Part shown: positions 2,547-28,025 of the stretch, in pieces
Layout: each line of letters begins with the position of its first letter
Position numbering within the stretch: the stretch's first letter is position 1
Origin: Candidatus Electrothrix yaqonensis
GTDB taxonomy: Bacteria; Desulfobacterota; Desulfobulbia; Desulfobulbales; Desulfobulbaceae
Reading direction: 5' to 3'
Assembly (NCBI GenBank): GCA_047651235.1
Contig: CP178758.1
Span: forward strand, 1,590,001 to 1,622,000
Length of the DNA: 32,000 bases
Program-made: the position numbers and the translations under genes
Notes under the pieces: generated by a model
The model's database searches: none
Told to the model about the DNA's origin: nothing
What the model saw: the letters and a program-made list of their open reading frames with translations, nothing else

Positions 2547-2674
2547 CAACAGAGCAGAGCGAGAAAAACGTGGTGCTTCCGGGAGGCTTGATCCTTTGAT
2601 TGACAATATCCGGACAGCTGGTACAATTCGGCGGCAGTTATGCAGAAATTCATCAGGGGAACTGTCGATTTGTC

Positions 2675-3211
2675 ATGCAGCTGACAGAGCGGGAACTGCC
2701 GCATTATACCTACAACGAGTACAGTGCCTGGGAAGGCCGCTGGGAACTGATTCAGGGCATTCCCTATGCCATGTCCCCTTCTCCATCCTATGCCCATCAG
2801 CGGATCAGTCAAAAAATAGCCCGACTGCTGGATGAAGCTCTGGATGACTGTGCATCCTGCCGGGCTGTTCTGCCGGTTGACTGGAAGATTGCCGACGACA
2901 CGGTTGTCCAGCCCGACAACATGGTTCTCTGCTATCAGCCGGAGGGCCTGTTTCTGACCAAGGCTCCTTCCCTGATTGTTGAAATTCTGTCCCCTTCCAC
3001 CTCCAGCAAAGACCGTATTACCAAATTCAATCTTTATCAGGAAGAAGGGGTCGATTATTATTGCATTGTTGATCCGGCGACAAAGACAACCAAAATTTAT
3101 GTTCTGCAGAACGGCCGGTACAGCAAACTGTTGGATGCGACAGACGAGACTGTGACCTTTACCCTGAAAGAATGCGTTTTTGATGTTGATTTTTCCCGGA
3201 TCTGGGATTGA
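2675..3211 (+). CDS. Uma2-family (DUF820) PD-(D/E)xK endonuclease
   Basis: YTYNEY...[32 protein letters not shown] and [37 protein letters not shown] match Uma2 family hallmarks. Start is uncertain: ATG at 2675 is preferred, and the ORF track's start at 2600 is a TTG. Confidence 0.75.
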
Positions 3212-3228
3212 AAAAAGAAGAGAAACCT

Positions 3229-5733
3229 ATGAGCGAGACAAGGCAGGAAGCCCGAAAATACGATTTCAAAACTATTGAAGCTAAATGGCAGCAGCGCTGG
3301 CAGGAAGAAAAATCATATAAGGTCAGCGAAGACCCGGACCGGGAAAAATATTATCTGCTGGAGATGTTCCCCTATCCCTCCGGCCGTATCCATATGGGCC
3401 ATGTCCGCAACTACTCCATCGGCGATGTAATTGCCCGGTATAAACGGATGCGCGGCTTCAATGTGCTGCACCCGATGGGTTGGGATGCCTTCGGCTTGCC
3501 CGCAGAAAATGCCGCTCTGAAACGGGGCGTCCATCCGGCAAAATGGACCTACGACAATATCAGCTACATGCGCGATCAGCTCAAGGCTATGGGGCTGAGC
3601 TATGACTGGGACCGGGAAATCGCCACCTGTCATCCGGAATATTACCGCTGGGAGCAGCTGGTTTTTCTCCAGCTCCTGGAAAAAGGACTGGTCTACCGCA
3701 AAAAGACCACGGTCAACTGGTGCGAGGACTGCGCCACAGTGCTGGCTCGTGAGCAGGTCATTGACGGCTGCTGCTGGCGCTGCGATCAGCAGGTGGTGCC
3801 GAAAAACATGTACGGCTGGTTCCTCAAGATCACCGATTATGCCGACGAACTGCTGGACGATCTGGACAAGCTCAGCGGCTGGCCGGAAAAAGTGGTCACC
3901 ATGCAACGCAATTGGATCGGCAAAAGCCGGGGCCTTGCTTGCGATTTTTCGGTTCAAGGGCATGAGGAAAAAATCACCATCTTTACCACCCGCCCGGACA
4001 CCATCTTCGGGGTGACCTTCATGTCGCTGGCTGTGGAGCACCCGCTCATCGACGCCCTGATTGCCGGAACCGAGCATGAAGAGCCGGTCCGCCAGTTTAT
4101 CGAGCAGACTTTGCTGGAAAAACAGCGCATAGCCCTGGATCAGGAGCCGGAAAAACACGGTATATTCACCGGCAAATACTGTGTCAATCCCTTTAACGGT
4201 GATCGTGTACCCATCTATGTGGCCAATTTTGTCCTCATGGAATACGGCACCGGCGCGGTCATGGCCGTGCCTGCCCATGATCAGCGCGATTTTGACTTTG
4301 CCCGCAAATACGGTCTGCCTGTGCGTCCGGTGGTGCAGCCAGAGGAAAAACTGGACGGGAACAGCATGGAGGCGGCCTGGGAAGGAGACGGCATTCTGGC
4401 CGATTCAGCCGAATTCAGCGGTCTGCCTTCGGCTGAGGCCAAGCAGGCCATTATTGCCCATGCGGAAAAACAGGGCTTCGGCAAAGCCCATATCACCTAC
4501 CGCCTGCGGGACTGGGGGATCTCCCGCCAGCGCTACTGGGGCGCACCTATCCCGGTGATTCATTGCGCTGCCTGCGGCGTGGTGCCGGTGCCGGAGGAGC
4601 AACTGCCTATTGTTCTGCCCGGTGCTGCGCCGCCCTACGGCAGTCATGCTCCGTTGCATCAGCAGGAGGTTTTTTATACCGCTACCTGCCCTGAATGCGG
4701 CAACCCTGCACAGCGGGAGACCGATACGATGGACACCTTTATGGAGTCGTCCTGGTACTTTGCCCGCTACACCAGCCCGCGCAGCCAGGACGGCCCTCTT
4801 AACCGGCAGGCAGCGCAATACTGGCTGTCCGTGGATCAGTACATCGGCGGCGTGGAACATGCCATCCTTCATCTCCTCTATGCCCGTTTTTTTGCAAAAA
4901 TTCTGCGCGATCTCGGATATGTGGATATTGACGAGCCCTTCACCAATCTGCTCACCCAGGGTATGGTGATCAAAGACGGGGCCAAGATGTCCAAGTCCAA
5001 GGGCAATGTGGTGGATCCGCACGACCTTATTACGCAGTACGGTGCCGATACAGTACGCCTGTTTTCCCTGTTTGCCGCGCCGCCGGAACGGGATCTGGAA
5101 TGGAACGCTCAGGGGGTTGAGGGCAGTTTCCGTTTTCTCAACCGGGTATTCCGGCTGGTGCAGGTGAACTTGGCCTGTTTTGCAGGGTCCGGGCAGGAAG
5201 AAATGGAAATTCAGCTTGATCAGCTGAACCAGACAGACCGGCAGCTGCATCGCAAGACCCATCAGACCATCCGGCGGGTGACCGACAGCATTGAAAGCAA
5301 TTTTCATTTCAATACCGCCATCGCCGGGGTTATGGAGCTGGTCAATCAGATCAGTTCAACAGCGGGAGAGGGAGCAGAACAGTCAGTCAATAAAGCTGTG
5401 CTCCAGGAAGCTCTGCAGACCGTGCTGATCCTCCTCCTTCCTATGGTGCCGCATTTCTGCGAGGAACTCTGGCAGCTGACCGGTCATGAGAATTCTTTAG
5501 ATAGGGAGCAGTGGCCTGACTTTGATCCGGAGGCCGCCAGGGAGGATGAACTCACCATTGTGGTGCAGGTTAACGGCAAGGTGCGGTCCCGCCTCCAGGT
5601 CCCAGCTGACAGTACCGAAGATGCTCTCAAGGAAAAGGCCCTGGCGGATGAGCGGATTGTCAGCTTTACTGCAGGCAAAACGCCGAAAAAAATCATTGTG
5701 GTTCAGGGTAAACTTGTTAATATTGTTCTGTAG
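3229..5733 (+). CDS. leuS: Leucine--tRNA ligase
   Basis: Class I HIGH motif ([15 protein letters not shown]) and KMSKS motif ([12 protein letters not shown]); CP1 editing domain present. ATG at 3229 fits homolog N-termini (..[14 protein letters not shown]). The ORF-track start at 3208 is a TTG overlapping the Uma2 stop. Confidence 0.97.
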
Positions 5734-8445: not shown

Positions 8446-8844
8446 ATGAATTACGGTGTAGTCAGCCAGGAACAGCTTGAAAAGATTGATGAGATCCTGT
8501 CGGAGCAGCTCATCAAGATCGGAGTGGACTGTGTCATCATTATCGATATGGCGGGAAATATTATTACGGCCAAGGACAACGGCACATCCAAGTATGACGT
8601 CTATTCGTTTGCAGCTCTGGCAGCCGGTAACTTTGCCACTGTGGATGCGATGGCAAAACTGGTCGGAGAGCAGGAATTTTCTCTGCTTTTTCATAAGGGG
8701 ACGGACTGTAATATCCATTTTTCCAAGATTGATGAGGAGCTGCTGCTGATCACCATGTTCGGAAAACATATCTCACTCGGTTTTCTGCGGCTGAATGTTG
8801 TGAAGGCGCTGGAGCAGATACGGAAACTCTGGGCAGGCAAATAG
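8446..8844 (+). CDS. mglB: Roadblock/LC7-domain GTPase-activating protein MglB
   Basis: 132 aa. Collinear with Myxococcus MglB as I recall it (..VIIIDMAGNIIT.., SFAALAAGNFATVDAMAKLVGEQEF.., FHKG.., SLGFLRLNVVKA). GAGG RBS; immediately upstream of mglA. Confidence 0.88.
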   Translation: MNYGVVSQEQLEKIDEILSEQLIKIGVDCVIIIDMAGNIITAKDNGTSKYDVYSFAALAAGNFATVDAMAKLVGEQEFSLLFHKGTDCNIHFSKIDEELLLITMFGKHISLGFLRLNVVKALEQIRKLWAGK

Positions 8845-8924
8845 AGTTTTTTCTGTTGCGGTATCCGGCGGAGTCCCATCTCTGCTGAGCGCATGAATCC
8901 ACACCCCCATAGCAGGAGAGAACA

Positions 8925-9530
8925 TTGAGCTTTATTAATCTACGCGAAAAGATCGTTCAGGTAAAAGTTGTGTATTACGGTCCGGGCAGGGGAGGAAAGA
9001 CGTCCAACCTTGAATATATCAACCGGAAATTCAGCAAACAGATCCAGTCCGAAATGGTCAGTCTGAAGACGCACGGAGACCGTACCCTGTTTTTTGATTT
9101 TCTGCCCTTTGATATGGGAAAAATCAAAGGATATGAACTGAAGATTCAGCTCTATACCGTGCCGGGGCAGGTGAAATACAACGCCACCCGCAAGCTGGTG
9201 CTGAAAGGGGTGGACGGGATTGTTTTTGTTGCTGATGCCCAGGAGGCCATGCGGGAAAAGAATATCCGCTCCCTGAATCAGCTGCATGAAAATCTCAAAA
9301 GCTATAAGGAGTCCATTTTCAAAATTCCCCTGGTCATGCAGTACAATAAGGTGGATCTGCGTAACCAGGGAATTCCTGTCCTACCCACTGCGGTGCTGGA
9401 AAAGGATCTGAACAGCAAACTGAAGGTACCCTCTTTTGAAGCCAGTGCCCTGACGGGATATAATGTTCCTGAAACACTGAAAAAGATCATCTCATCCACA
9501 GTCGTGTCAGTGCAGAAGAAACTCCTGTAA
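8925..9530 (+). CDS. mglA: Ras-like polarity GTPase MglA
   Basis: TTG start with AGGAGAG RBS 5 nt upstream. MSFIN N-terminus, P-loop VVYYGPGRGGKT, DRTLFFDFLP, LYTVPGQV (switch II Gln), GIVFVADAQ, QYNKVDL (NKxD). Close to the M. xanthus MglA pattern. Confidence 0.93.
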   Translation: MSFINLREKIVQVKVVYYGPGRGGKTSNLEYINRKFSKQIQSEMVSLKTHGDRTLFFDFLPFDMGKIKGYELKIQLYTVPGQVKYNATRKLVLKGVDGIVFVADAQEAMREKNIRSLNQLHENLKSYKESIFKIPLVMQYNKVDLRNQGIPVLPTAVLEKDLNSKLKVPSFEASALTGYNVPETLKKIISSTVVSVQKKLL

Positions 9531-9617
9531 AGAGACGGACGAACGGCATGGGGGCGTTGTCGAGTACGGACATGAAAACGAATACCTCAGACACCTCAGA
9601 CGAATCTGGATAAGGTT

Positions 9618-12600
9618 ATGCCCAAAGTAACAGACGAATTTGAAGACCTCACACAGTTTGCAGATGAGTCGTTTGATACCGAAGAAGTTGATCTGTTTGA
9701 ATTTGCCGATGATGATGATTCCCCTCTCCTTCGTCTGAAGTCGATCGTTCTCTCTCTGGACTGGGACATTACCGAGCAGACTCTAGCCGAACTGACTGAA
9801 GAGGTGGCAAACCTGCGTTCGCTGTGGGACGGCGACAAGGTAGCGCAGATCTATCTTCAGGGAATGGACAATATCGGCAGATATCTTCAAAAAGAGGGGG
9901 CCTATGCTCATCCCAATGCGATTAAACTTCTTCTTACTCTCTTTTATAATTATGAAAAAATAATATCATCAACTGATATCAGCGGCGATGCCATAGCGGT
10001 AATGCTCAAGGCGGATGTCCGGAAATTTAAAGTACTTCAGTATCAGATCAGCGAAATTGCTGCCGGTTATGATGAGTCCGAAGCAGTTGAAGCAGTTGCT
10101 CCGACTGATGAACCTGTGCTTGAAGAGGAAGACAGAGCAGATTCCGGCGGAGACCAGGAAAAAGACAAGGACGACGATCCGCTGCACAGTATGGAAGCCA
10201 CTATTCTCGGCCTGGAATGGGAGGTTACCCGGGAAGGACTTGAGAAATTCCATGCTGAATCTACCGAACTGCGGGAAAGACTGCGTGATAACCGGGAGGC
10301 TCAGGTTCTTGTGCAGGGGCTGCAGGTATTGGGCGCCTATATTCGGGAGGAAGAGACAAATGCGCATCCGGATGCCTTTACTATCCTTCATTCCTTTTAC
10401 GATGCCTTGAAACTCCTGCTCCAGGATAAAAACCTCAGTGCCGAGCAACGGAAAAAAATTCTCCTTGAGCAGGTCGGCAGTCTGAACAGCCTGAAAGAAA
10501 TTATTGCCAAATCAGCAGCTGACAGAGAAGCAGGTCGTAACAATGTCAATAATATCGATAATACTGCAGAACCGGACAGAAAAGAATTTGCCGCCGAACC
10601 GGAGGTCGGAGTGCAGGATGATGCGGATGATATAAGCGGAAGTGACGAGTTTTCGCTTGCTGAAGATGATTTGGATCTGGATACTGCGGATGAGGAAGCG
10701 GGAGAGTTCGATTTTTCCACGTTTGATGAGGAGGAAACAGAATCCGCGTCTTCTGTACCTGAAAAAGAAAAAAATGCGGAAGAGGATGAAGGTGCTCTGG
10801 AACCTGACCTGTTTTCCGATGATTCCGATGAAGATGCGGATTTTGACTTTGGCGATTTGGGTGATTTTGGTGATGATGAACTCGGTGATGATGAACTGGC
10901 GTCCGACCTGAAGAAAGACCTTGATTCTGCTGAAGAAACTGCATCTGAAGAGCTGTTCGGAGAAGCCGAAGATATCGATCTTGATGCTGATTTTGATGCC
11001 GAGCCAGATGCGGATAGCCTCTTTCCGGATGATCAGGATGATGAATCTGAACTGGTGCTCTCTCCGGACAATGACGATGAATCAATCACACCGGCATTGA
11101 TGGATGTTGAAGAAGAAGGCATTCATGAAGAATTCGGATCGGCCGGAGATGCTGAGAACGATAAGCCCGCTGATCTGGATGACCGACTCGATTCGTTATT
11201 TGGTGCTGATGATGTTGAGGAGGATGATACCGGTAGCGGGGAAGCGGACAGGCAGGAGGAGCAGGAGGACCGGCATCAGGAAAAGCCGGTTGCTGAAATC
11301 GAGACGTTCAGCCCTGACAGTGGTGATACCCCGACTGATAAGCAGGCAGATGCCAAAGAAGAAGGCGAGTTGAACGACGATCTTGATTCATTCTTCGATT
11401 TTGACGATGAGCTGGAAAATGATGCGCGGGCGCTGGTTGACAACAGCGGACTTTTTGACGGTCTGAAAGATATTGACGCTGACGGAGAAGAAGATGAGGA
11501 ACTTCTGGAGGGAGAGGAAGACCTTGATTCATTCTTCGATTTTGACAGCGACGATAATGGTGATGAGGTACAGCTGGAGGAGGAGACCTCCGGGAGAGAA
11601 GATGACGCTCCGGCAGCCGATGATGACCAGGATGATGACGAATTCGATGTTGTACTGGAAGATCTTGACGGGGATCAGGAGAGTGAAGATGAAGACCTGC
11701 CGGTTGCTCTTGCGGATGCTGATGAGGAAGGCGGTTTTAATGAGGAGACTGTTGAGGTTGATGATGATCGGTCGTCCGAACTTGATGAAAAACTGGATTT
11801 CTTTTTTGATTTTGACAACGACACATCAGAATCAGAGGATGATCGGGCAGCAAGTGAGGATGAGCCGGTCGCTGCTGCGCAGGAGGATGACGGAACCGGA
11901 GACGATGCGGATTTGTTTTCTTTTGAGGAGGACGAAGCGCCTTCTGCCGCAGCGGAACAGGCACCGGACAACGCCAGGGATGCTGCGGAGGAAACCGGGG
12001 TACTTGCAAAATTGGATTCTCTCTTTGATACTGATGAAGATGATGACGAACTTTCTGATGATATCCAGGTAGAAGAACAGGCTGCAAAGACAGGCGGAGT
12101 GGCCGACGACGAGCTTGTTCTTTCCTTTGAGGATGAAAAGAGCGGACCGGACGAACCTGCCTTATCGTCAGAATCAGAACTCTCCTCAGTTGCCTCCGTT
12201 TCGGATGATCAGCAGGATGTCAGTGATGAACTTACTGAAGAGCTTGACAGTTTCTTCTCTTTTGACGATGAGGAACCGGGAGGAGAGCAGGCGGAAACCG
12301 AGACGGGTACCCCGAATGAATATGAAGAAATCGCTGACCTTGATGATGAACTTATCGTGCCGCTCGATGATGAAACTGCAGAGGAATCGGTAGCGGGCGA
12401 AGATGGGACCGTGGAAGAAAGCTCGGCGTTTGGGGATGCGTTTTCTTTGTTCCCTGATGATGAAGAAAGTGAGAAAAACAGTTCTGAGGAGCCTGCAGCT
12501 TCTCTGCCTGCGCAACCGAAGGAAACTCCATCCGCATCTGCGGATGAACCGGAAGAGCTTGATTCGTTCTTTGCTGCCGATGATGATGATGACGATGATG

Positions 12601-15600
12601 ATTTTGCCGGTGCGGCGCTGAGCGGCGATGCGGCTGCGGAACAGGCTGAGGATGAATTCGCCCTGTCGCTTGATGAGGATGACCTCGGCGGGGATGAGGC
12701 GGATGATTCCTTTTTTGCCGGAGCCGGAGCGGATGAGGATGAAGATGAGGAAGCGGCCGGAGCTGAACCGGATATCTCTGCTGAAGTAGCTGTATCCTCG
12801 GAAGAACCTGGAGATGAACCGGAAGAGCTTGATTCGTTCTTTGCTGCCGATGATGATGACGATTTTGCCGGTGCGGCGCTGAGCGGCGATGCGGCTGCGG
12901 AACAGGCTGAGGATGAATTCGCCCTGTCGCTTGATGAGGATGACCTCGGCGGGGATGAGGCGGATGATTCCTTTTTTGCCGGAGCCGGAGCGGATGAGGA
13001 TGAAGATGAGGAAGCGGCCGGAGCTGAACCGGATATCTCTGCTGAAGTAGCTGTATCCTCGGAAGAACCTGGAGATGATCCGAAAGAGCTTGATTCGTTC
13101 TTTGCTGCCGATGATGATGACGATTTTGCCGGTGCGGCGCTGAGCGGCGATGCGGCTGCGGAACAGGCTGAGGATGAATTCGCCCTGTCGCTTGATGAGG
13201 ATGACCTCGGCGGGGATGAGGCGGATGATTCCTTTTTTGCCGGAGCCGGAGCGGATGAGGATGAAGATGAGGAAGCGGCCGGAGCTGAACCGGATATCTC
13301 TGCTGAAGTAGCTGTATCCTCGGAAGAACCTGGAGATGATCCGAAAGAGCTTGATTCGTTCTTTGCTGCCGATGATGATGACGATTTTGCCGGTGCGGCG
13401 CTGAGCGGCGATGCGGCTGCGGAACAGGCTGAGGATGAATTCGCCCTGTCGCTTGATGAGGATGACCTCGGCGGGGATGAGGCGGATGATTCCTTTTTTG
13501 CCGGAGCCGGAGCGGATGAGGATGAAGATGAGGAAGCGGCCGGAGCTGAACCGGATATCTCTGCTGAAGTAGCTGTATCCTCGGAAGAACCTGGAGATGA
13601 TCCGAAAGAGCTTGATTCGTTCTTTGCTGCCGATGATGATGACGATTTTGCCGGTGCGGCGCTGAGCGGCGATGCGGCTGCGGAACAGGCTGAGGATGAA
13701 TTCGCCCTGTCGCTTGATGAGGATGACCTCGGCGGGGATGAGGCGGATGATTCCTTTTTTGCCGGAGCGGATGAGGATGAAGATGAGGAAGCGGCCGGAG
13801 CTGAACCGGATATCTCTGCGGAAGTAGCTGTATCCTCGGAAGAACCTGGAGATGAACCGGAAGAGCTTGATTCGTTCTTTGCTGCCGATGATGATGACGA
13901 TTTTGCCGGTGCGGCGCTGAGCGGCGATGCGGCTGCGGAACAGGCTGAGGATGAATTCGCCCTGTCGCTTGATGAGGATGACCTCGGCGGGGATGAGGCG
14001 GATGATTCCTTTTTTGCCGGAGCCGGAGCGGATGAGGATGAAGATGAGGAAGCGGCCGGAGCTGAACCGGATATCTCTGCTGAAGTAGCTGTATCCTCGG
14101 AAGAACCTGGAGATGAACCGGAAGAGCTTGATTCGTTCTTTGCTGCCGATGATGATGACGATTTTGCCGGTGCGGCGCTGAGCGGCGATGCGGCTGCGGA
14201 ACAGGCTGAGGATGAATTCGCCCTGTCGCTTGATGAGGATGACCTCGGCGGGGATGAGGCGGATGATTCCTTTTTTGCCGGAGCCGGAGCGGATGAGGAT
14301 GAAGATGAGGAAGCGGCCGGAGCTGAACCGGATATCTCTGCTGAAGTAGCTGTATCCTCGGAAGAACCTGGAGATGATCCGAAAGAGCTTGATTCGTTCT
14401 TTGCTGCCGATGATGATGACGATTTTGCCGGTGCGGCGCTGAGCGGCGATGCGGCTGCGGAACAGGCTGAGGATGAATTCGCCCTGTCGCTTGATGAGGA
14501 TGACCTCGGCGGGGATGAGGCGGATGATTCCTTTTTTGCCGGAGCCGGAGCGGATGAGGATGAAGATGAGGAAGCGGCCGGAGCTGAACCGGATATCTCT
14601 GCTGAAGTAGCTGTATCCTCGGAAGAACCTGGAGATGATCCGAAAGAGCTTGATTCGTTCTTTGCTGCCGATGATGATGACGATTTTGCCGGTGCGGCGC
14701 TGAGCGGCGATGCGGCTGCGGAACAGGCTGAGGATGAATTCGCCCTGTCGCTTGATGAGGATGACCTCGGCGGGGATGAGGCGGATGATTCCTTTTTTGC
14801 CGGAGCCGGAGCGGATGAGGATGAAGATGAGGAAGCGGCCGGAGCTGAACCGGATATCTCTGCGGAAGTAGCTGTATCCTCGGAAGAACCTGGAGATGAA
14901 CCGGAAGAGCTTGATTCGTTCTTTGCTGCCGATGATGATGACGATTTTGCCGGTGCGGCGCTGAGCGGCGATGCGGCTGCGGAACAGGCTGAGGATGAAT
15001 TCGCCCTGTCGCTTGATGAGGATGACCTCGGCGGGGATGAGGCGGATGATTCCTTTTTTGCCGGAGCCGGAGCGGATGAGGATGAAGATGAGGAAGCGGC
15101 CGGAGCTGAACCGGATATCTCTGCTGAAGTAGCTGTATCCTCGGAAGAACCTGGAGATGATCCGAAAGAGCTTGATTCGTTCTTTGCTGCCGATGATGAT
15201 GACGATTTTGCCGGTGCGGATGACAGAGATGAAGATCTTTTGCTTGATCAGAAATATGAGGAAAAATCAGAAGATATAAAGTATCCGGAGACGTTCGTGT
15301 CCGATGAGAAATCGGCAGCAGCCGAAGTTGAGGATGAAGTTGCCGCTGCGCTCATAAGCGATCAAAAGACTGAAAGTATGCCCGCAGCAGCGGCTCTGTT
15401 TGGTGCTGCTTCCCTTATCGGGGCTGCGGCGGTCTCATCTGCTTTTTCCGCAGACAAGGTGCAGCATCTTCAGGAGCTGACTGCTGCAGCCAAAAAAGAA
15501 GCCGGTCCCCAGCAGGGAGTTGTCCTGAACCTGCTGGAGTCTGCAACATCTATGATTGCCCGCACTCCCGAACCGGTGGAGGATGACCGCACCGTTATTC

Positions 15601-15863
15601 AGGAATTGGCTGCCGGGCTCGCCGAAGCGGACGATCCGGGGCAACTGACTGCTCTGGTCAGCCGTTACACTTCCTGGCAGCAGGAATTTTTTACCCGGCT
15701 CCTGACACGGACAGAAATTCCGCATATTGAACCGGCTGTTTCCGGAGCTGACAGCATCAGCAGTCAGGATGCCGTACATCAGGTGCAGGAGAGCTTTGCT
15801 CAGCTCAGGCAGGCCATGATGGATGAATTCAATCTGCTCAGAAAGGAACTGAAAAAAGGATAA
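9618..15863 (+). CDS. Giant hyper-acidic repeat protein (2,081 aa), unknown function; candidate MglAB-associated scaffold
   Basis: Single uninterrupted ORF. N-terminus has two paralogous ~75-aa domains. A long D/E-rich region carries reiterated LDSFF-type motifs. Then 10+1 near-identical 87-aa repeats, one Ala-rich hydrophobic segment, and a ~150-aa non-acidic helical C-terminus. I saw no signal peptide or catalytic motif. Confidence 0.85.
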   Translation: MPKVTDEFEDLTQFADESFDTEEVDLFEFADDDDSPLLRLKSIVLSLDWDITEQTLAELTEEVANLRSLWDGDKVAQIYLQGMDNIGRYLQKEGAYAHPNAIKLLLTLFYNYEKIISSTDISGDAIAVMLKADVRKFKVLQYQISEIAAGYDESEAVEAVAPTDEPVLEEEDRADSGGDQEKDKDDDPLHSMEATILGLEWEVTREGLEKFHAESTELRERLRDNREAQVLVQGLQVLGAYIREEETNAHPDAFTILHSFYDALKLLLQDKNLSAEQRKKILLEQVGSLNSLKEIIAKSAADREAGRNNVNNIDNTAEPDRKEFAAEPEVGVQDDADDISGSDEFSLAEDDLDLDTADEEAGEFDFSTFDEEETESASSVPEKEKNAEEDEGALEPDLFSDDSDEDADFDFGDLGDFGDDELGDDELASDLKKDLDSAEETASEELFGEAEDIDLDADFDAEPDADSLFPDDQDDESELVLSPDNDDESITPALMDVEEEGIHEEFGSAGDAENDKPADLDDRLDSLFGADDVEEDDTGSGEADRQEEQEDRHQEKPVAEIETFSPDSGDTPTDKQADAKEEGELNDDLDSFFDFDDELENDARALVDNSGLFDGLKDIDADGEEDEELLEGEEDLDSFFDFDSDDNGDEVQLEEETSGREDDAPAADDDQDDDEFDVVLEDLDGDQESEDEDLPVALADADEEGGFNEETVEVDDDRSSELDEKLDFFFDFDNDTSESEDDRAASEDEPVAAAQEDDGTGDDADLFSFEEDEAPSAAAEQAPDNARDAAEETGVLAKLDSLFDTDEDDDELSDDIQVEEQAAKTGGVADDELVLSFEDEKSGPDEPALSSESELSSVASVSDDQQDVSDELTEELDSFFSFDDEEPGGEQAETETGTPNEYEEIADLDDELIVPLDDETAEESVAGEDGTVEESSAFGDAFSLFPDDEESEKNSSEEPAASLPAQPKETPSASADEPEELDSFFAADDDDDDDDFAGAALSGDAAAEQAEDEFALSLDEDDLGGDEADDSFFAGAGADEDEDEEAAGAEPDISAEVAVSSEEPGDEPEELDSFFAADDDDDFAGAALSGDAAAEQAEDEFALSLDEDDLGGDEADDSFFAGAGADEDEDEEAAGAEPDISAEVAVSSEEPGDDPKELDSFFAADDDDDFAGAALSGDAAAEQAEDEFALSLDEDDLGGDEADDSFFAGAGADEDEDEEAAGAEPDISAEVAVSSEEPGDDPKELDSFFAADDDDDFAGAALSGDAAAEQAEDEFALSLDEDDLGGDEADDSFFAGAGADEDEDEEAAGAEPDISAEVAVSSEEPGDDPKELDSFFAADDDDDFAGAALSGDAAAEQAEDEFALSLDEDDLGGDEADDSFFAGADEDEDEEAAGAEPDISAEVAVSSEEPGDEPEELDSFFAADDDDDFAGAALSGDAAAEQAEDEFALSLDEDDLGGDEADDSFFAGAGADEDEDEEAAGAEPDISAEVAVSSEEPGDEPEELDSFFAADDDDDFAGAALSGDAAAEQAEDEFALSLDEDDLGGDEADDSFFAGAGADEDEDEEAAGAEPDISAEVAVSSEEPGDDPKELDSFFAADDDDDFAGAALSGDAAAEQAEDEFALSLDEDDLGGDEADDSFFAGAGADEDEDEEAAGAEPDISAEVAVSSEEPGDDPKELDSFFAADDDDDFAGAALSGDAAAEQAEDEFALSLDEDDLGGDEADDSFFAGAGADEDEDEEAAGAEPDISAEVAVSSEEPGDEPEELDSFFAADDDDDFAGAALSGDAAAEQAEDEFALSLDEDDLGGDEADDSFFAGAGADEDEDEEAAGAEPDISAEVAVSSEEPGDDPKELDSFFAADDDDDFAGADDRDEDLLLDQKYEEKSEDIKYPETFVSDEKSAAAEVEDEVAAALISDQKTESMPAAAALFGAASLIGAAAVSSAFSADKVQHLQELTAAAKKEAGPQQGVVLNLLESATSMIARTPEPVEDDRTVIQELAAGLAEADDPGQLTALVSRYTSWQQEFFTRLLTRTEIPHIEPAVSGADSISSQDAVHQVQESFAQLRQAMMDEFNLLRKELKKG
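12541..15229 (+). repeat. In-frame tandem array of 261-bp units (10 complete + 1 partial), inside the acidic-protein gene
   Basis: The motif g[g/a]aagagcttgattcgttc recurs at 12551, 12821, 13082, 13343, 13604, 13859, 14120, 14381, 14642, 14903 and 15164. Spacing is 261 bp, except 270 for unit 1 (+9 bp, extra GAT codons) and 255 for unit 5 (6-bp deletion near 13765). Confidence 0.97.
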
Positions 15864-15871
15864 AGCTGCCA

Positions 15872-16498
15872 ATGTTCGGTTTTCTGCAAAGCGTTACCTC
15901 CTCACTGGGCAGAAAATATATCATGGCTGCAACCGGTCTCCTGCTCGGGGACTTTCTGCTGATCCATGCTATCGGCAACAGCTTTATCTTTCAGGGAAAG
16001 GTCGCGTTTAATGCCTATGCCGAACATCTCCATTCTCTTGACCCTCTGATCCCGCTGTCGGAACTGCTGCTTGCAGCGGTGTTCCTGCTTCATATTGTTA
16101 CCGGGATCAGTCTGTTTCTGGAGAACCGGAAGGCCAGGGGCAGCAGGTACGCTGTCCGCAAATCAGCCGGAGGACAGACATGGGGAACCCGCACCATGCC
16201 GTGGACCGGGGCGGCCATCCTCGCCTTCCTCATCCTCCATCTTCTTACTGTCCGTTTTGTCGATCATGCGGTATCGGTGGCAGACACCGTGGTTACCGTA
16301 CTCGGCAATCCCCTCCTTTCTTTTCTTTATTTCCTCGGCGTGACCGCCTTGGCACTGCATATCAGTCATGGCTTCTGGTCGCTGTTTCAGAGTTTTGGTA
16401 TCAACCACCCGCAGTATAATCGGTTGATACGACGGGGTGGTTATCTACTGACGGCACTGATAAGCTGTATCTTTCTTAGTGTCATCCTGTTGTTATAG
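15872..16498 (+). CDS. Succinate dehydrogenase/fumarate reductase-type cytochrome b subunit (b558 family), orphan
   Basis: 208 aa, five predicted TM helices. N-terminal ..SSLGRKYIMAATGLLLGDFLLIHAIGN.. resembles SdhC/FrdC type B. Four helix-embedded His (H32, H74, H123, H163 by my count) fit dihaem ligation. No sdhA/sdhB-like ORF follows. Confidence 0.7.
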   Translation: MFGFLQSVTSSLGRKYIMAATGLLLGDFLLIHAIGNSFIFQGKVAFNAYAEHLHSLDPLIPLSELLLAAVFLLHIVTGISLFLENRKARGSRYAVRKSAGGQTWGTRTMPWTGAAILAFLILHLLTVRFVDHAVSVADTVVTVLGNPLLSFLYFLGVTALALHISHGFWSLFQSFGINHPQYNRLIRRGGYLLTALISCIFLSVILLL

Positions 16499-16650: not shown

Positions 16651-17256
16651 CTACCTGTCTGTGCAGGTAAACTGAATTGAAGAAAACATTGCCCAGCCGA
16701 GGCGCCTATTCATCGGGGTGCCATCAATCCAGCCGATCTCGGTCTGATAGCTGCCATCACCGTAATCCTTGCGTACCAGCGCGTGACCTGTCAGAACACC
16801 GGCAATACCACATAGTTTTGCATCTCCAAAGGCATCCTCCAGAGAAATATAGAATGTATGCTCTGTTTCTCCGGTAATATCCCCGGAAGTATAAAGGAAG
16901 CTGCCGACTTCAGGATTACCTTTTTCATCTGCAGGCATTCCTGCTTTGGCCGGGGTGTTTCCAGCTCCTGCCCAGAAATTCGTCTCGACAAGTTCCCATC
17001 CGTCAAGTGTCGCATAGGTGACTTCCAGAAAATCGCCGTCAGGCCTGATACAAACCAGACCTGCCAGAGTACGGTGACCGGCTATGAACGTCTGGCATAT
17101 GGGAGTATCCGTATTATATAAATTGACCTGATAATCCGCCGGATTGACCCGATAACCCGCCTGAGCGGTAAAAGGAATGGAAGCAAACAAAAGAGCTGCT
17201 GCGGAGATGAAACTTCTGCGGAATACTTTTGAAGAAAATTTTGATGTGAATTTCAT
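16651..17256 (-). CDS. Secreted protein of unknown function
   Basis: I prefer the Met at 17256: GGAGG sits 7 nt upstream on the - strand. Signal peptide MKFTSKFSSKVFRRSFISAAALLFASIPFTAQA|GY. Four Cys in the mature part; no family recognised. Confidence 0.6.
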   Translation of the reverse strand: MKFTSKFSSKVFRRSFISAAALLFASIPFTAQAGYRVNPADYQVNLYNTDTPICQTFIAGHRTLAGLVCIRPDGDFLEVTYATLDGWELVETNFWAGAGNTPAKAGMPADEKGNPEVGSFLYTSGDITGETEHTFYISLEDAFGDAKLCGIAGVLTGHALVRKDYGDGSYQTEIGWIDGTPMNRRLGWAMFSSIQFTCTDR

Positions 17257-17757
17257 AATATACCTCCAGATAAAAAAAATGCATGAGAAAGCAGGCAACC
17301 CGGCCGTCTCCCTGCTGGAGACCCTTGGCTTTCCGGCACCGCCTCACGGCGGCTGTGGCTTTATCAACTTTCCGGCTCTGCTTTTTCCGGAAAGTATATT
17401 ATGTCAAAGAACCTGCTGCGCTTAAGAACTATTCTTAGTTAAGATATCCTTACACTATTTATAGCTTAGATGCTATCAAATGTCAAACCTTTTTTTGAAA
17501 AAGTAAGACAAGCAACATTTTGAAATAACTTTATATTAAACCTGCAGGCCAAACAGTACTCGGCGTATATTCTGCTGCTCCTGTTACGCGTCCGGAAGTG
17601 GACTTCCGAAAATCCCGAAACCGGGTAAAAAATATTCACCTTTATTTTCCGGCAGGATAAAAATTACCCGCCCGGCAAGAGAATAAAGATGCAGAGATGA
17701 TAATAAAAACTATTCTTTTCCTTGTGCTGCATAATGGTACCTGCTCTGTCGGATGGG

Positions 17758-19390: not shown

Positions 19391-20379
19391 ATGAACGCTC
19401 CCAGCCCCGAAAAAAGAAGTCCCCATGACAAATTCTTTGAGTTGACCGGCATCGCCCGGCAACTTACGTCTTTTCACGAAAGATATCATCTCTTTTTTAA
19501 GAGACATACAGTAAGTTTGTCAGATAAAGCATTCCAATACTTGAAAGGTTTATTCCAGTCTGACAAAAAAACATGGAACGTATGGAGGAAAAGGTTCCGG
19601 GCGTTAAATATGAGCCCCTCCAGTATTTTCTTTCCGACTCGAACTGGGATTGGCGTCCTGTAAACAACCAAGTAGCTAAAGATGCAGATAAACTTTTAGG
19701 AGGAAAGGAAGATAGCGCTCTTTTAATTGATGAATCCGGGATACCCAAAAAGGGTAAAATGTCTGTTGGGGTTTCTCGTCAATGGTGCGGGCAGCTTGGT
19801 AAAACCGACAACTGTCAAGTAGTTCTACTTTGGCGATCATAAACATAACTAGCTTATTTTTATTAAGTATTTAAAAACCCCTGTTTTTAGTATTATTAAT
19901 ATTATTAAATAGTTAATGGTATGGTCACCAAAGTAGAATTAGTTGTCAGACGTGAGGTTAAGTCCCCGAAAAAAATTAAATATAGCCTAAGTAATGCGGA
20001 AAGTAACACGTCAACAAGACGACTTGCATATATGCAAGCTCAACGATATTGGGTTGAACGGCCATTTCAGGATGCAAAAAATGAATGTGGAATGGGTGAT
20101 TATCAGGCTCGGGGATGGCTGGCTTGGCATCATCATATGACTATGGTCATGATGGCCATGTTGTTTATGGTCGAGCAACGATTATACCATCAAGTCGGTG
20201 TCCCGTTATTGAGTTGCGCTGATATAACAACATTACTCAAGTCAATTCTTCCACGTCGAGATGTAAACGAAGATGAAGTTATAAGACAGCTTCGTCAACG
20301 GCATGAAAAGAGGCAAGCTTCGATTGATTTCGCATATGAGAAACAACCGAATTGCAAATTATTACCACAGCCTTTGTGA
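19391..20379 (+). pseudogene. IS701-family DDE transposase, frameshifted and internally deleted
   Basis: The N-terminal part is split over two frames at an A7 run (~19564): ..FHERYHLFFKRH..LKGLFQSDKK / MERMEEKVPGVKYEPLQYFLSDSNWDW...LLIDESGIPKKGKMSVGVSRQWCGQLGKTDNCQV. The C-terminal part (19921-20379) has YWVERPFQDAKNECGMGDYQARGWLAWHHHMTMVMMA. The central catalytic region is replaced by 78 bp of AT-rich DNA. Confidence 0.8.
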
Positions 20380-20631: not shown

Positions 20632-21279
20632 CTATGAATTTTTATCGCTTTTCATATCAAGATTGATTTTTTTGTGAGTCGATTGGGTCTGATCAGTATT
20701 TTGATATTGTTCGTTTATCTTGTTTTTGCTATAAGCAAATAACCCTTCATCTATACCGATAAAACAGTTAGTTGAAGATTCCTGTATCTGCATTCCCCGT
20801 GTTTTTTTTTTGGCATGCCAGTCTGCCCAAAGTGTCCAGACAAAGGGATTATAAGGCTCCCAAGCCAGTCCCTGCTCAATCATCCGTTCAAGGCGGCGCA
20901 TAATCCCGGCTGAAAGATTATACCGTTTGAAGAGAATATCGCCCTGTTTACAAAGGGTACGAATAAAGAAATAGCTGTTGCCCGTCAGTTCGGCAAAACG
21001 AAGATTTTGCTCCTGGTTCCTGAAAAAGCGTTCTGCCAGATGCGCAGTGTCCTGTTGTTCACCAGTTTGTAATGCGTGAAGCAGTGATTCTCGTTCCGTA
21101 GCATTAACAGGAAAAACTTTGGGTCTTGATCTACCTCTTCCCTTGACATTTTTTTCAGACAAGATTTGATGCAGCTCCCTTGCCACCTTATCCTGAGCAC
21201 GATTCCTGAACACAGCCAGGGCACTTTCAAGATTCTGCTGCCATATAGCTGGAGCAACATAATTTGAATATGCCCACAA
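20632..21279 (-). CDS. Hypothetical protein; C-terminal half of a gene split by a MITE
   Basis: The first 11 codons (MWAYSNYVAPA) are encoded by MITE sequence. From IWQQNLESA.. onward it continues the upstream ORF 21346-22008 in frame once the MITE is removed. Confidence 0.6.
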   Translation of the reverse strand: MWAYSNYVAPAIWQQNLESALAVFRNRAQDKVARELHQILSEKNVKGRGRSRPKVFPVNATERESLLHALQTGEQQDTAHLAERFFRNQEQNLRFAELTGNSYFFIRTLCKQGDILFKRYNLSAGIMRRLERMIEQGLAWEPYNPFVWTLWADWHAKKKTRGMQIQESSTNCFIGIDEGLFAYSKNKINEQYQNTDQTQSTHKKINLDMKSDKNS

Positions 21280-21350
21280 GAGGCATAAGTTTTGCCTTCA
21301 CGCCTTTCAGATAGCTGATCCTGTATTCAGTTTATACTGCTCCAGCTATA
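21244..21350. mobile_element. 103-bp MITE (copy 1) with 11-13-bp terminal inverted repeats, flanked by TA/TA
   Basis: TA|TAGCTGGAGCA...TGCTCCAGCTA|TA. It differs at 1 of 103 positions from copy 2 at 23395-23497. Confidence 0.8.
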
Positions 21351-22008
21351 TCTGCTGATTTAGCGAATACAGCCCACGGAGTGCAGCGTACTGCTTTTTA
21401 AAATGGGAGTTCGCCTCAGCTCCGCTTGTGTAACAGACAGATTCGTGGATCATCAGAGCCAGCAGCATAAGTACCTGCTTGTTTTCGTCAGAACACCCCT
21501 GCAGGCCGAACAGAGCGACATCCAGATATTCAGGACGTCCATCTGATGCCAAACGCAACCAAGCAGGGACAAAACTCCTTTTTTCTTGCTGACGCCCAAG
21601 CAGTCGCCAGCACTCCAGAGCAGGATCGCGTTCAGGCGCGAGTCGCAAAGGAGTAAGCCAGCGCAACCAACTGTCAAGTCCCTGCTGGAGCTGATAGGGA
21701 AACATCTGCAAGTCAAGAAGCTGAACCGAAATCAGGCAATCACAGATATCCTTGCTATACACAGCAAAACCCAGCCTGTCGATCTTTCGGGCATATTCTT
21801 TGCGCATGGTGGTAAACCAAGCAAACAGAGCCATGTCTATCCGTTTTCGCCGTTCTGCAAATTCAGATACATAAGGAAATTCCTGCCAAAGCAGTTCCGG
21901 GATATCCATCCACGGTGACGATCCCAATCCAGCCCGACCGCTGAATAGATCGTTGACAGCTTTCCGGGGATCAGTATCAAAGGTGGACAGCCAGCGTTCA
22001 ATCAGCAT
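21346..22008 (-). CDS. Hypothetical protein; N-terminal half of the gene split by the MITE
   Basis: GGAGGG RBS upstream. The ATG overlaps the stop of the upstream gene fragment (ATGCTGA). The stop codon TAG lies inside the MITE terminus. Confidence 0.6.
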   Translation of the reverse strand: MLIERWLSTFDTDPRKAVNDLFSGRAGLGSSPWMDIPELLWQEFPYVSEFAERRKRIDMALFAWFTTMRKEYARKIDRLGFAVYSKDICDCLISVQLLDLQMFPYQLQQGLDSWLRWLTPLRLAPERDPALECWRLLGRQQEKRSFVPAWLRLASDGRPEYLDVALFGLQGCSDENKQVLMLLALMIHESVCYTSGAEANSHFKKQYAALRGLYSLNQQI

Positions 22009-22153: not shown

Positions 22154-23381
22154 TAGTGCTCTGTCAGATCTCAATTTTATGGTAAACGGATTTTAATTTG
22201 CACCGGGCGTCAGAGATTTTTATTTGCCAATCAACACCACGTTGACTGTTGTTCACATCGGTTGACCATGCGGCAATCTCTTCTTGTAACGTCTCAAGCT
22301 CCCCTATGCGACGACCAGAGAGGCATTGTCGAGTCATGGAACTCAGCTCATTTTCTGCTATATTGAGCCAGCTTCCATGCTTCGGGGTATAACAGAACTC
22401 AATCCGGCGCACTAATGCACGGGCACGATCAGGGGCAAAAGCTTCATAAAACGCTCCCTTTGTATGGGTATTGAGATTATCAGATACCAACGTAATCTTT
22501 TCAGACTCGGCATAGCGGCCTTCAAGGAGGCGGGCCACTTCGACGGCCCAGTCTGCTTTGGTTCGCCGTGGGCGTGCGGAGGCTTCACGCCACCCTGAAA
22601 GTGGCTCGGTAAACATAAAAATACTAGCGGTGCCGTTGCGTTCATACTCATAATCAACACGTTTCGGATGATTCTCTGTCGCCAGGATAGGCTTGCGAGT
22701 TTCCTTTATCAATTGAACGGGCTGCTCGTCCATGCAAATAAGAGGATGATCTTGATTATACGGTCTTTCATAGGCTTCCAGTACATCCTCCATATTGGCC
22801 GCAAATTCCGCATCTTTTTTTGGAGGAATAACCCAATATTGGATTTTTCGGTTGTTCATCCCGTTTTTTTTATTACCTGTCGAACACTTTCATGACTAAT
22901 CGACGGAACAATTTCCAATTCAACAACATGGCGGGCCAGCAAACGCAATGACCAGTTTGCATATCCCGGCGGAGGAGAACCAAGGCGAGTGGCAATGATT
23001 CTGGCTTCTTGCTCTCCGTTCAATAGTTTTGGAGTAGGCGGGGTTACACGTTTTTTTCCGTCAAGTGCTTGTTGAAAGCCGTGCAAAACAAAATTCTGAC
23101 GGATGTTCTCAACAGTTTTTGTCCTACAGTTGAACGCTTCTGCTATCCTACTGTCTGTCCAGCAGGGGCCATTTGCATCAGCCTTCAGTAATATGTGAGC
23201 ACGACGTACTTTTTGACTGCTCCCCGAAAGTTTTTTGATAGTCTCGTGTAAATGAGCGCATTCTTCTTGGGTCAACCGAACAATGTATTTTTTGGGCATG
23301 AAGAGCCTCCGAGTGTTTTTCGGCTTCATGTAACATACTTTCGGCAGGATTACTCTAAAATTTAGCTTTTACATAGCACTA
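22154..23381 (-). mobile_element. IS630-family insertion sequence (~1.2 kb) with flanking TA
   Basis: Imperfect TIRs: TA-gtgctctgtcagatctcaattttatgg (left) versus the reverse complement of ctctaaaatttagcttttacatagcac-TA (right), ~20/27 matches. Encodes the two-frame transposase. Confidence 0.85.
22164..23329 (-). CDS. IS630-family transposase, two frames joined at an A8 slippery run (-1 frameshift)
   Basis: ORF1 (22856-23329) is an HTH/winged-helix N-terminus. ORF2 (22164-22859) is the DDE domain (..YWVIPPKKDAEF..ICMDEQPVQL..VSDNLNTH..SWLNIAENE..). They overlap at A AAA AAA C (T-run at 22864-22871 on the + strand). Confidence 0.88.
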
Positions 23382-23709: not shown

Positions 23710-24348
23710 TCACGCAGTGAAATAGCGCATCAGGGCGACAGGAAGTGCCTTTCTCCCCCAATATCCGAGCCCCAGACGGTCGCGCAGAGCATGGGGCCAG
23801 TCGTCATCATCGCATTCCTCATGCACCTCATTCTGCAAGGCGGCGAAGACAGGACGGTTGTCACGGCAATCGTTCCACCTTGCAAAAAAACGCGCCGCTT
23901 CCTGTTTCGCATCGTAATTCCGACCGGAGTCGGCACGCCGCAAGAGAGACTTCAGCAAGTCAAACTTGTTTCTGAGTTCCGGAGGACCGAGCCCCTTGCC
24001 GCTGGAATTTTTCCATTTGACAAGAGGACGTTCAAGATTTTCAATCCGCACCAGAACCGTGTCCTCAGACAATCCTTCTTTCCACGCCGGGCGGTTAATT
24101 TCAAGAAAGGCATCCGGAATGCTTGAACGGAAAACCTCCTCCTGATTTTCTGTATAGTCCTTTCTGGCTGCCGTCCAGTCTGCCCATGTCATTTTGTCTG
24201 CGTCATCATGCGGCAGATAAATCTCAAACTGTTCCCATCGTTGATCCGATGCTCGCTCCTCAAAGCGGCAATTGTCGGCAACAGCGGCTTCAACAGTATT
24301 TGAGGAACGGGCCAGTTTGTCTAAGAATGATCTGAAATTTAAAGACAT
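23710..24348 (-). CDS. Hypothetical protein (212 aa), first gene of the disrupted accessory cassette
   Basis: Clean ORF with no family recognised (..WPHALRDRLGLGYWGRKALPV..). An open +1 frame continues past its stop toward the IS630 junction. Confidence 0.5.
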   Translation of the reverse strand: MSLNFRSFLDKLARSSNTVEAAVADNCRFEERASDQRWEQFEIYLPHDDADKMTWADWTAARKDYTENQEEVFRSSIPDAFLEINRPAWKEGLSEDTVLVRIENLERPLVKWKNSSGKGLGPPELRNKFDLLKSLLRRADSGRNYDAKQEAARFFARWNDCRDNRPVFAALQNEVHEECDDDDWPHALRDRLGLGYWGRKALPVALMRYFTA

Positions 24349-26562: not shown

Positions 26563-26610
26563 GATACAGTCTTCCTACAATGAAAAATAAACAATACAAG
26601 CAGCCGCTCT

Positions 26611-27953: not shown

Positions 27954-28025
27954 CGTCTGCATGTATTCCTGAATTTTCCCAGTTATCTCTTGCTCCTTTT
28001 GAGCAAGCCACAGGAGCGTATCGAG

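Follow-up and report, generated by a model that had tools for sequence, protein, structure and literature searches.

We analysed a window of 32,000 nucleotides (the whole stretch of DNA considered here; positions 1,590,001 to 1,622,000 of contig CP178758.1) from the cable bacterium Candidatus Electrothrix yaqonensis, in which the genes of the polarity regulators MglB and MglA are followed directly by the gene of a very large acidic protein, hereafter ORF3. MglA and MglB form a model bacterial polarity switch and, to our knowledge, their partners (RomR, RomX, RomY, MglC and SgmX) are known almost only from Myxococcus. The locus comprises four open reading frames (ORFs) on the forward strand, at 8446-8844, 8925-9530, 9618-15863 and 15872-16498 (ORF1 to ORF4), separated by spacers of 80, 87 and 8 bp, in exact agreement with the coordinates of an earlier reading made from the letters alone (the sequence-only reading). 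A Shine-Dalgarno-like GAGG, AGGAG or AAGG lies upstream of each of the four ORFs and, as had been noticed earlier, no terminator-like hairpin is present in the three intergenic gaps, according to a consensus scan. One sigma-70-like site (9436-9464, + strand; TTGAAG, 17 nt, TATAAT; 10 of 12 matches) lies in the 3' end of mglA, ~150 bp ahead of ORF3, and could be an internal promoter; promoter-like sites are overall fewer than the shuffle expectation across the region.

ORF1 is mglB (8446-8844, + strand) and encodes a short Roadblock/LC7 GTPase-activating protein of 132 amino acids (aa). This assignment, already made in the sequence-only reading, is borne out by a match to Pfam Robl_LC7 (28.6 bits, cutoff 23) and by the alignment with Myxococcus xanthus MglB in the PDB (1.7e-16), which covers M. 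xanthus residues 8-130. The ORF1 protein stops there, and the local MglB is devoid of the C-terminal extension and of the acidic C-terminal helix (Ct-helix), a feature of M. xanthus-type proteins and not of all MglB. The MglBs coupled to relatives of ORF3 are likewise all 130-134 aa long. Since ORF1 reaches 56 bits with the NCBIfam model of the Thermus-type MglB equivalog, for a cutoff of 200, it is not an equivalog of that subfamily. ORF2 is mglA (8925-9530, + strand, TTG start) and encodes a Ras-like polarity GTPase of 201 aa, which aligns with M. xanthus MglA in the PDB over residues 1-194 (4.4e-51). It bears all the motifs by which it had been recognised: the P-loop GPGRGGKT, the intrinsic arginine (the equivalent of R53) in HGDRT, TVPGQ (YTVPGQ) and NKVD. 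In a 2015 survey of prokaryotic Ras-like GTPases, the D. propionicus orthologue was classed as a Group 1 MglA with the arrangement 'MglB>MglA>'; the neighbourhoods of Group 1 MglAs vary, with no conserved neighbour and with occasional PATAN genes (PMC4316618).

Domain architecture and motif arrays of ORF3

ORF3 (9618-15863, + strand), the third gene of the mglB-mglA unit, is predicted to encode an acidic multivalent protein of 2081 aa. No match was found in Pfam or NCBIfam, in keeping with the description of a protein without signal peptide or enzymatic motif. Asp and Glu make up 35% of the whole protein, 40% of its irregular linker and 40% of its tandem array, the last value being the one announced for the repeats. 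The protein begins with a conserved acidic-aromatic peptide (aa 1-32; 9618-9713, + strand; EDLTQFADESFDTEEVDLFEF; 41% Asp/Glu; alignment A1), followed by two copies of a five-helix bundle that we call the 'DWEIT' bundle. Copy 1 spans aa 33-146 (9714-10055, + strand; hmmsearch with profile A2, 1.2e-49) and copy 2 aa 185-300 (10170-10517, + strand; 2.5e-46), these segments of ~114 aa being homologous to each other. AlphaFold2 (AF2) places the helices of bundle 1 at aa 36-158 and those of bundle 2 at aa 188-310, with confidence values (pLDDT) of 71-88 and 79-92, respectively. Profile and sequence searches with the bundle in Pfam, NCBIfam and the PDB gave nothing.

The bundles are followed by an acidic, disordered linker of ~1570 aa (aa 301-1867), made of an irregular part (aa 301-975; 10518-12542, + strand) and of a tandem array (aa 976-1867; 12543-15219, + strand). 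The irregular part contains six LDx[F/L]F motifs, starting at aa 524, 589, 636, 726, 799 and 876, and two PALADxDEEGGF-type motifs, starting at aa 492 and 696 (~11091 and ~11703 in the window). The array consists of 10.2 copies of a 261-bp (87-aa) unit, 98% identical according to Tandem Repeats Finder, and each unit bears ELDSFF, DEFALSLD and DDSFF. LDx[F/L]F occurs exactly 17 times in ORF3, the number already counted in the sequence-only reading, and 10 DDSFF come in addition (27 together). Ten of the motif-bearing units are a recent tandem amplification. The 87-aa units exist in two variants, GDEPEELDSFF and GDDPKELDSFF, which follow one another as E,E,K,K,K,E,E,K,K,E,K, and one unit carries a 2-aa deletion; the variant order and the deletion suggest that multi-unit blocks were amplified rather than single units. 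Arrays are also found in the homologues of other cable bacteria, with periods of 186-501 bp, 2-23 copies and 85-98% identity. The differing periods indicate that the motif-bearing units were amplified independently, in separate lineages.

The short motif is conserved well beyond the window. Of 60 full-length homologues, 59 have the pattern [LIVMF][DE]x[FLIVMW][FWY] in their linker, with 335 occurrences observed for 30.8 expected from composition shuffles, and its number grows with linker length, so that the multivalent architecture claimed for ORF3 stands. Its consensus in the homologues is (D/E)(I/L)(D/E)x(K/R)LDxFFG(D/E)(D/E), and as a module of the family core the acidic amphipathic motif reads (D/E)(I/L)(D/E)x(K/R)LDx(F/L)FG(D/E). 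A second linker motif, PALAD(A/S)(D/E)EEGGF(N/S)E, occurs 42 times for 0.3 expected and at many loci (for example L032 and L036), and DEFALSLD is a third recurrent one. The PALAD-type motif alternates with LDxFF in ancestral units of ~60-70 aa; the young 87-aa array of the window is without it and has DEFALSLD and DDSFF in its place.

The C-terminal region (aa 1868-2081; 15219-15863, + strand) comprises an Ala-rich hydrophobic helix (aa 1920-1945), a putative degenerate third bundle and a conserved terminal amphipathic helix (FAQLRQAMMDEFNLLRKELKKG; alignment A4). A database search with these 214 aa came back empty, its list of 8000 candidates being filled by low-complexity words, and a local comparison of loci and hhalign were used instead. 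No third copy of the bundle was detected in ORF3 by hmmsearch at E<=10, and the match of the C-terminal region to the bundle profile by itself is weak. The hhalign comparison with A3, the alignment of the short family members described below, gave a probability of 95.5% (E 1.4e-8) over 133 columns running from mid-bundle to the terminal helix. We read the region as a degenerate third bundle followed by the terminal helix of the family, this profile-profile match being the sole argument for the bundle. The segment aa 1920-1945, at the start of the C-terminal region, is the only hydrophobic window of ORF3; it is Ala/Gly-rich, with Kyte-Doolittle values of 1.5-1.8 (maximum 1.79), and makes no convincing transmembrane (TM) helix.

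The family of ORF3 and its linkage to mglB-mglA

Matches to the first 321 aa of ORF3 were confined to the Desulfobulbaceae, the best ones coming from Candidatus Electrothrix (73-74% identity). Almost all records of homologues are labelled 'partial' because the assemblies break in the repeats. We surveyed 80 loci, with one genome per species, from Electrothrix, Electronema, Desulfobulbus, Desulfogranum and other relatives, by comparing their six-frame ORFs with the proteins of the window. In 78 of them, the mglB-mglA pair immediately precedes the ORF3 homologue; in the remaining two, the contig ends within ~160 bp upstream, implying that the linkage holds in 78 of 78 informative loci. MglB and MglA of the 80 loci are 82-100% identical to the proteins of the window, for just 41-73% in the N-terminus of ORF3. 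The N-terminal and C-terminal regions of ORF3 are both conserved, so that it is a genuine gene. What lies upstream of mglB differs between loci (adenine deaminase, LptE, or flagellar and PilZ genes), and the genes downstream of the ORF3 homologues are convergent and of housekeeping type (ABC permeases, gamma-glutamyltranspeptidase, ThiG, LptD). Hence, the conserved unit is the triad mglB-mglA-ORF3. The downstream genes of 344, 349 and 510 aa in Desulfobulbus, considered as PilT-like functional neighbours, were rejected, as they encode ABC permeases, gamma-glutamyltranspeptidase and similar proteins.

An exhaustive search with a single-bundle profile retrieved 1034 clusters (50% identity) at E<=1e-3, 336 of which at E<=1e-30, and many of the clusters contain two or three copies of the bundle. 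Five distant metagenomic variants of 205-1217 aa (P0017, P0048, P0103, P0223 and P0252) are all encoded immediately behind a gene for a Roadblock protein and one for a Ras-like protein of 201 aa. They include a 351-aa protein fused to TM segments and HAMP, three-copy proteins of 1217 and 1162 aa, and short forms of 265 and 205 aa. The tie of ORF3 to mglBA put forward in the sequence-only reading thus holds in a linkage test set in advance, since homologues of the terminal domains adjoin mglB-mglA in all informative loci and in these five variants.

The minimal members of the family (205-265 aa) combine three modules: at the N-terminus an acidic amphipathic motif (E-[IV]-x-x-R-L-D-x-L-F-G-[DE]), then one five-helix bundle of ~114 aa (with SIDWEITDE as an invariant signature and a conserved AHP turn) and a C-terminal amphipathic helix (AIEELKxFIxxEFxALRxEL). 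In ORF3, the peptide aa 1-32 occupies the place of this N-terminal motif, with low AF2 confidence. Complete homologues measure 1275-2784 aa in cable bacteria and 616-1092 aa in other Desulfobulbaceae. With its bundles, its motifs, its terminal helix and a start 87 bp after mglA, ORF3 belongs to what we propose to call the 'MglBA-linked DWEIT-bundle' family, defined by one or more DWEIT bundles of ~114 aa, an acidic LDx[F/L]F motif, a C-terminal amphipathic helix and a gene position immediately after mglB-mglA. Judged by these sequence features, ORF3 is a greatly expanded cable-bacterium member of an undescribed, presumably cytoplasmic family, which supplies the third, conserved gene of the mglB-mglA operons of the Desulfobulbaceae and other Desulfobacterota. 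Literature searches on MglA with cable bacteria, Desulfobulbaceae or Desulfobacterota returned nothing relevant and no description of the family, in agreement with the earlier statement that an MglAB partner of this architecture had not been described.

The short forms have neighbours of their own. At three loci (L088 and L089, 3915-10798; L090, 3914-10618), mglB, mglA and the gene of the DWEIT protein form part of a larger conserved cluster, with genes for DUF8082, Zn-ribbon-HAMP, a 327-aa protein, PAS and PATAN-receiver proteins. At a fourth one (L003, 4929-11992), a divergent PATAN-receiver gene lies upstream of the short form and the gene of a TPR-MshEN-T2SSE (PilB-like) ATPase downstream.

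Possible roles of ORF3

Because the ORF3 family is always encoded directly after mglB-mglA, it is probably a missing partner of MglA/MglB. We favour, with some reserve, a role of ORF3 as a multivalent adaptor or scaffold of the polarity switch, in which the folded bundles and the terminal helix would serve for docking and oligomerisation, and the repeated LDxFF motifs would offer many low-affinity sites, raising the local concentration of MglA (or MglB) or regulating it. The linkage to mglBA and the multivalent motif architecture support one part of the multivalent scaffold or landmark pictured in the sequence-only reading; its other part, the tethering or redox coupling through ORF4, is not supported.

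Among the closest known systems is RomR (with RomX; M. xanthus, Bdellovibrio), an MglA/MglB partner and scaffold with a disordered linker; its tail is acidic and helical and can functionally replace the Ct-helix of MglB at the allosteric pocket of MglA (PMC6785124). RomR differs from ORF3 by its N-terminal receiver domain, its single Glu-rich tail and its location outside the mglBA operon, whereas ORF3 has helical bundles and 17-27 motif copies and is always operon-linked. No Response_reg match was obtained for ORF3, whose N-terminal domains are all-helical bundles. RomY, a co-GTPase-activating protein of MglB, resembles the short forms in being a small cytoplasmic protein with a model-less N-terminal domain and a conserved C-terminal motif, and it binds both MglA and MglB (PMC9481161). 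Compared by description only, it differs in that its gene is not beside mglBA and that its domain has ~83 aa instead of ~114 aa in the DWEIT family. Desulfobulbaceae are not listed in the supplements of that study (PMC9481161).

In a more specific version of the adaptor, the ORF3 motif would act in trans like the Ct-helix of M. xanthus MglB. The tail of that protein beyond residue 130, as read from PDB chains, consists of a linker and of the Ct-helix (AEISDDDIDNLFSE, residues 147-157), in which D150-152, D154, L156 and F157 bind an allosteric pocket of MglA formed by alpha5 (K181, K185) and the beta2-beta3 loop (L64, I67). This binding promotes nucleotide exchange on MglA, and the acidic helix of RomR can substitute for the Ct-helix (PMC6785124). 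The Ct-helix and the ORF3 motif are both acidic and amphipathic, sit on a flexible tether and have the core hydrophobic-D-x-[L/F]-F-[G/S]-[D/E], that is, IDNLFSE in M. xanthus MglB and LDNLFGD or LDSFFGE in the ORF3 family. The MglA-contacting residues D154, L156 and F157 match the invariant L-D-x-F-F core of the ORF3 motif, a likeness that is not significant by profile scoring. The Ct-helix differs in being present as one copy in cis on MglB, whereas the ORF3 motif is carried in many copies by a separate protein. The coupled MglAs retain a lysine where M. xanthus MglA has K181 and hydrophobic residues where it has L64 and I67. Only a regular expression written post hoc is rare (75 in 200,000); the motif profile has no match in the PDB at E<=10.

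Several observations weigh against an adaptor of MglA/MglB, in this version or in general. Gene adjacency is the sole link that ties ORF3 to MglA/MglB, and the putative co-transcription of the triad is deduced from the spacing and the missing terminator-like sites, with the promoter-like site at 9436-9464 standing against it. Neither bundle model has a significant fold match in the PDB by Foldseek. In the AF2 model of a short form, the bundle has pLDDT values of 78-88, for ~54 in the N-terminal motif, which is not confidently docked. Lys185 of the M. xanthus MglA pocket is not kept in the coupled MglAs. Finally, profile hidden Markov models of the motif score -1.6 and -3.5 bits on the tail of M. 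xanthus MglB, no better than 13-19% of composition-matched shuffles. Because the motif profile does not rise above these shuffles, we downgraded the idea of a Ct-helix acting in trans to a lead, and we consider it doubtful. A broader proposal, which we advance as speculative, is that the DWEIT family would be the missing core of Desulfobacterota MglA/MglB modules, a multivalent 'Ct-helix' in trans that would control nucleotide exchange on MglA and raise its local concentration; the cable-specific 2- to 4-fold expansion, by tandem amplifications independent of each other, would then adapt the switch to the direction of gliding and its reversal in centimetre-long multicellular filaments.

The strongest competitor to the adaptor, which we nevertheless regard as rather unlikely, is a self-associating polar matrix akin to a PopZ condensate, in which the bundles of ORF3 would themselves be the binding partners of its LDxFF motifs. 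With two or three bundles and 17-27 motifs, the protein would make a sticker-and-spacer network, and MglA and MglB would be its clients instead of the direct ligands of the motif. Motif and bundle always belong to one polypeptide, even in the 205-aa forms, the number of motifs scales with linker length, and the layout, folded at one end, helical at the other and acidic and disordered in between, recalls Caulobacter PopZ, whose short binding helix, acidic disordered linker and C-terminal helical oligomerisation region build a polar microdomain. PopZ differs by having no homology to ORF3 (no Pfam match), and ORF3 exceeds it tenfold in size, with folded bundles at its N-terminus and a link to a GTPase switch. 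A precedent for a bundle that binds LD-type helices exists in the FAT domain with the LD motifs of paxillin, and FAT domains are weak fold neighbours of the bundle (probability 0.16-0.20); these matches are not significant, however, the motif is not docked on the bundle in the short-form model described above, and oligomerisation is purely putative.

Fold comparison also raises the question of a signal-transduction adaptor, in which a degenerate HPt/CheA-P1-like bundle would dock receivers, for example those of PATAN response regulators, and bring chemosensory input to MglA/MglB. CheA P1/HPt domains are indeed the top Foldseek neighbours of both bundle models (probability 0.90-0.99, TM-score 0.53-0.59), PATAN-receiver, PAS and HAMP genes occur in the short-form loci, one distant variant carries TM segments and a HAMP domain as a fusion, and an association of PATAN with MglA/MglB is recorded in the 2015 survey (PMC4316618). 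Yet the Foldseek E-values (0.08-1) are not significant, and the Hpt profile matches none of 39 family members at E<=10. In addition, the bundle has no histidine in helix 2, its conserved histidine belonging to the AHP turn that connects helices 3 and 4, and the Desulfobulbaceae loci are without conserved signalling neighbours. We therefore see little chance for this reading.

A membrane-anchored polar landmark of the FimV/HubP type is very improbable: ORF3 shares high acidity and repeats with HubP, FimV and TspA, which are tied to pili, flagella or polarity, it has one marginal hydrophobic segment (aa 1920-1945), and two homologues (P0001 and P0008) are labelled 'pilus assembly protein FimV' in source databases, but the periplasmic LysM, the TM helix and the C-terminal FimV motif of these proteins were not detected in ORF3. 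ORF3 and the homologues named FimV alike have no LysM, signal peptide or FimV C-terminal motif (NCBIfam, none at E<=1). The hydrophobic segment is Ala/Gly-rich and aligns with the start of a C-terminal domain that is conserved in forms without TM helix, and there is no relation in sequence or fold. The analogy with HubP/FimV drawn in the sequence-only reading is thus functional at most, and the 'FimV' labels of the databases are corrected.

The central surmise of the sequence-only reading, an undescribed partner of MglBA, comes out considerably strengthened. The system is a known kind of module, the switch of MglA and MglB, whose third component is new, widespread and unannotated and reaches its extreme in cable bacteria, its role being deduced from linkage and motif logic. 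A strictly operon-linked third family with more than 1000 sequence clusters and no domain model would give a handle on the wiring of the switch outside Myxococcus, the minimal form of ~205 aa suits biochemistry, and the cable-bacterium expansion is a concrete candidate for the control of filament gliding and reversals.

ORF4 and the rearranged flank

ORF4 (15872-16498, + strand) is an sdhC/frdC-like gene for a dihaem cytochrome b of the b558 family (208 aa, 5 TM), a neighbour of the MglBA-ORF3 unit and not a part of it. It scores 139.1 bits with TIGR02046 sdhC_b558 (cutoff 96), has five hydrophobic segments, and its His32, His74, His123 and His163 align with histidines of PDB 9lay_C (3e-20). 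No sdhA-like sequence is present in the 32-kb window. The identity, the five segments, the haem ligands and the absence of sdhA from the window agree with the orphan 5-TM dihaem cytochrome b described in the sequence-only reading; its orphan character does not extend to the relatives, in which sdhA follows. Among the ~53 loci with downstream DNA, an SdhC-like gene lies 3' of ORF3 in three (L006, L007 and L008), all from Electrothrix, and neither Electronema, Desulfobulbus, Desulfogranum nor any distant form shows this adjacency. At L008 (16817-19927), an intact sdhA (FAD_binding_2 and Succ_DH_flav_C) begins 121 bp after sdhC and is followed by a Uma2 endonuclease gene instead of sdhB; at L007 (15562-20871), sdhA lies 3 kb downstream of sdhC, with three inserted ORFs between them; at L006 (14276-16950), sdhA is fragmented. 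The sdh/frd operon beside ORF3 thus looks unstable in Electrothrix. Nucleotide similarity between the window and the Electrothrix loci ends at ~16470, the genes beyond being unrelated. Since sdhA follows the orthologous sdhC in Electrothrix, ORF4 is, on synteny, the leading gene of an sdh/frd operon adjoining the triad in a single genus, and in this genome it is cut off locally from sdhA; it looks 'orphan' because synteny breaks just after it.

A membrane-tethered or redox-coupled unit of ORF3 with ORF4 is hardly credible, even with a gap of just 8-10 bp in the window and at L006-L008 and an intact ORF4 with its haem ligands, as the adjacency is limited to Electrothrix, where sdhA follows, and the downstream neighbours elsewhere are unrelated housekeeping genes. 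The tethering or redox coupling suggested in the sequence-only reading, for which an SdhC-like neighbour was sought, is accordingly abandoned, which removes a misleading cytochrome b association.

The window bears other marks around the locus. Downstream of sdhC, five ORFs of 152-220 aa have no Pfam match (16651-17298, -; 19921-20379, +; 20632-21279, -; 21346-22008, -; 23710-24348, -), and an IS630-like transposase (22164-23329, - strand), composed of a helix-turn-helix ORF (22856-23329) and a DDE_3 ORF (22164-22859) with a 4-bp overlap, lies between sdhC and lptD. In Electronema, lptD lies ~2.5 kb downstream of ORF3 and convergent to it (L012, 9368-11737, - strand); in the window, lptD (27990-30575, + strand) is 12 kb from ORF3 and has the opposite relative orientation, a difference that would fit an inversion or insertion in this genome. 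A Uma2-family putative restriction endonuclease gene (2600-3211, + strand) is located between dnaB (1140-2546) and leuS (3208-5733). A strong local AT skew (-0.35) at 26001-27000 covers the 5' end of the gene for RNase E/G (24409-26562, - strand) and the beginning of a radical SAM gene (26611-27651, - strand).

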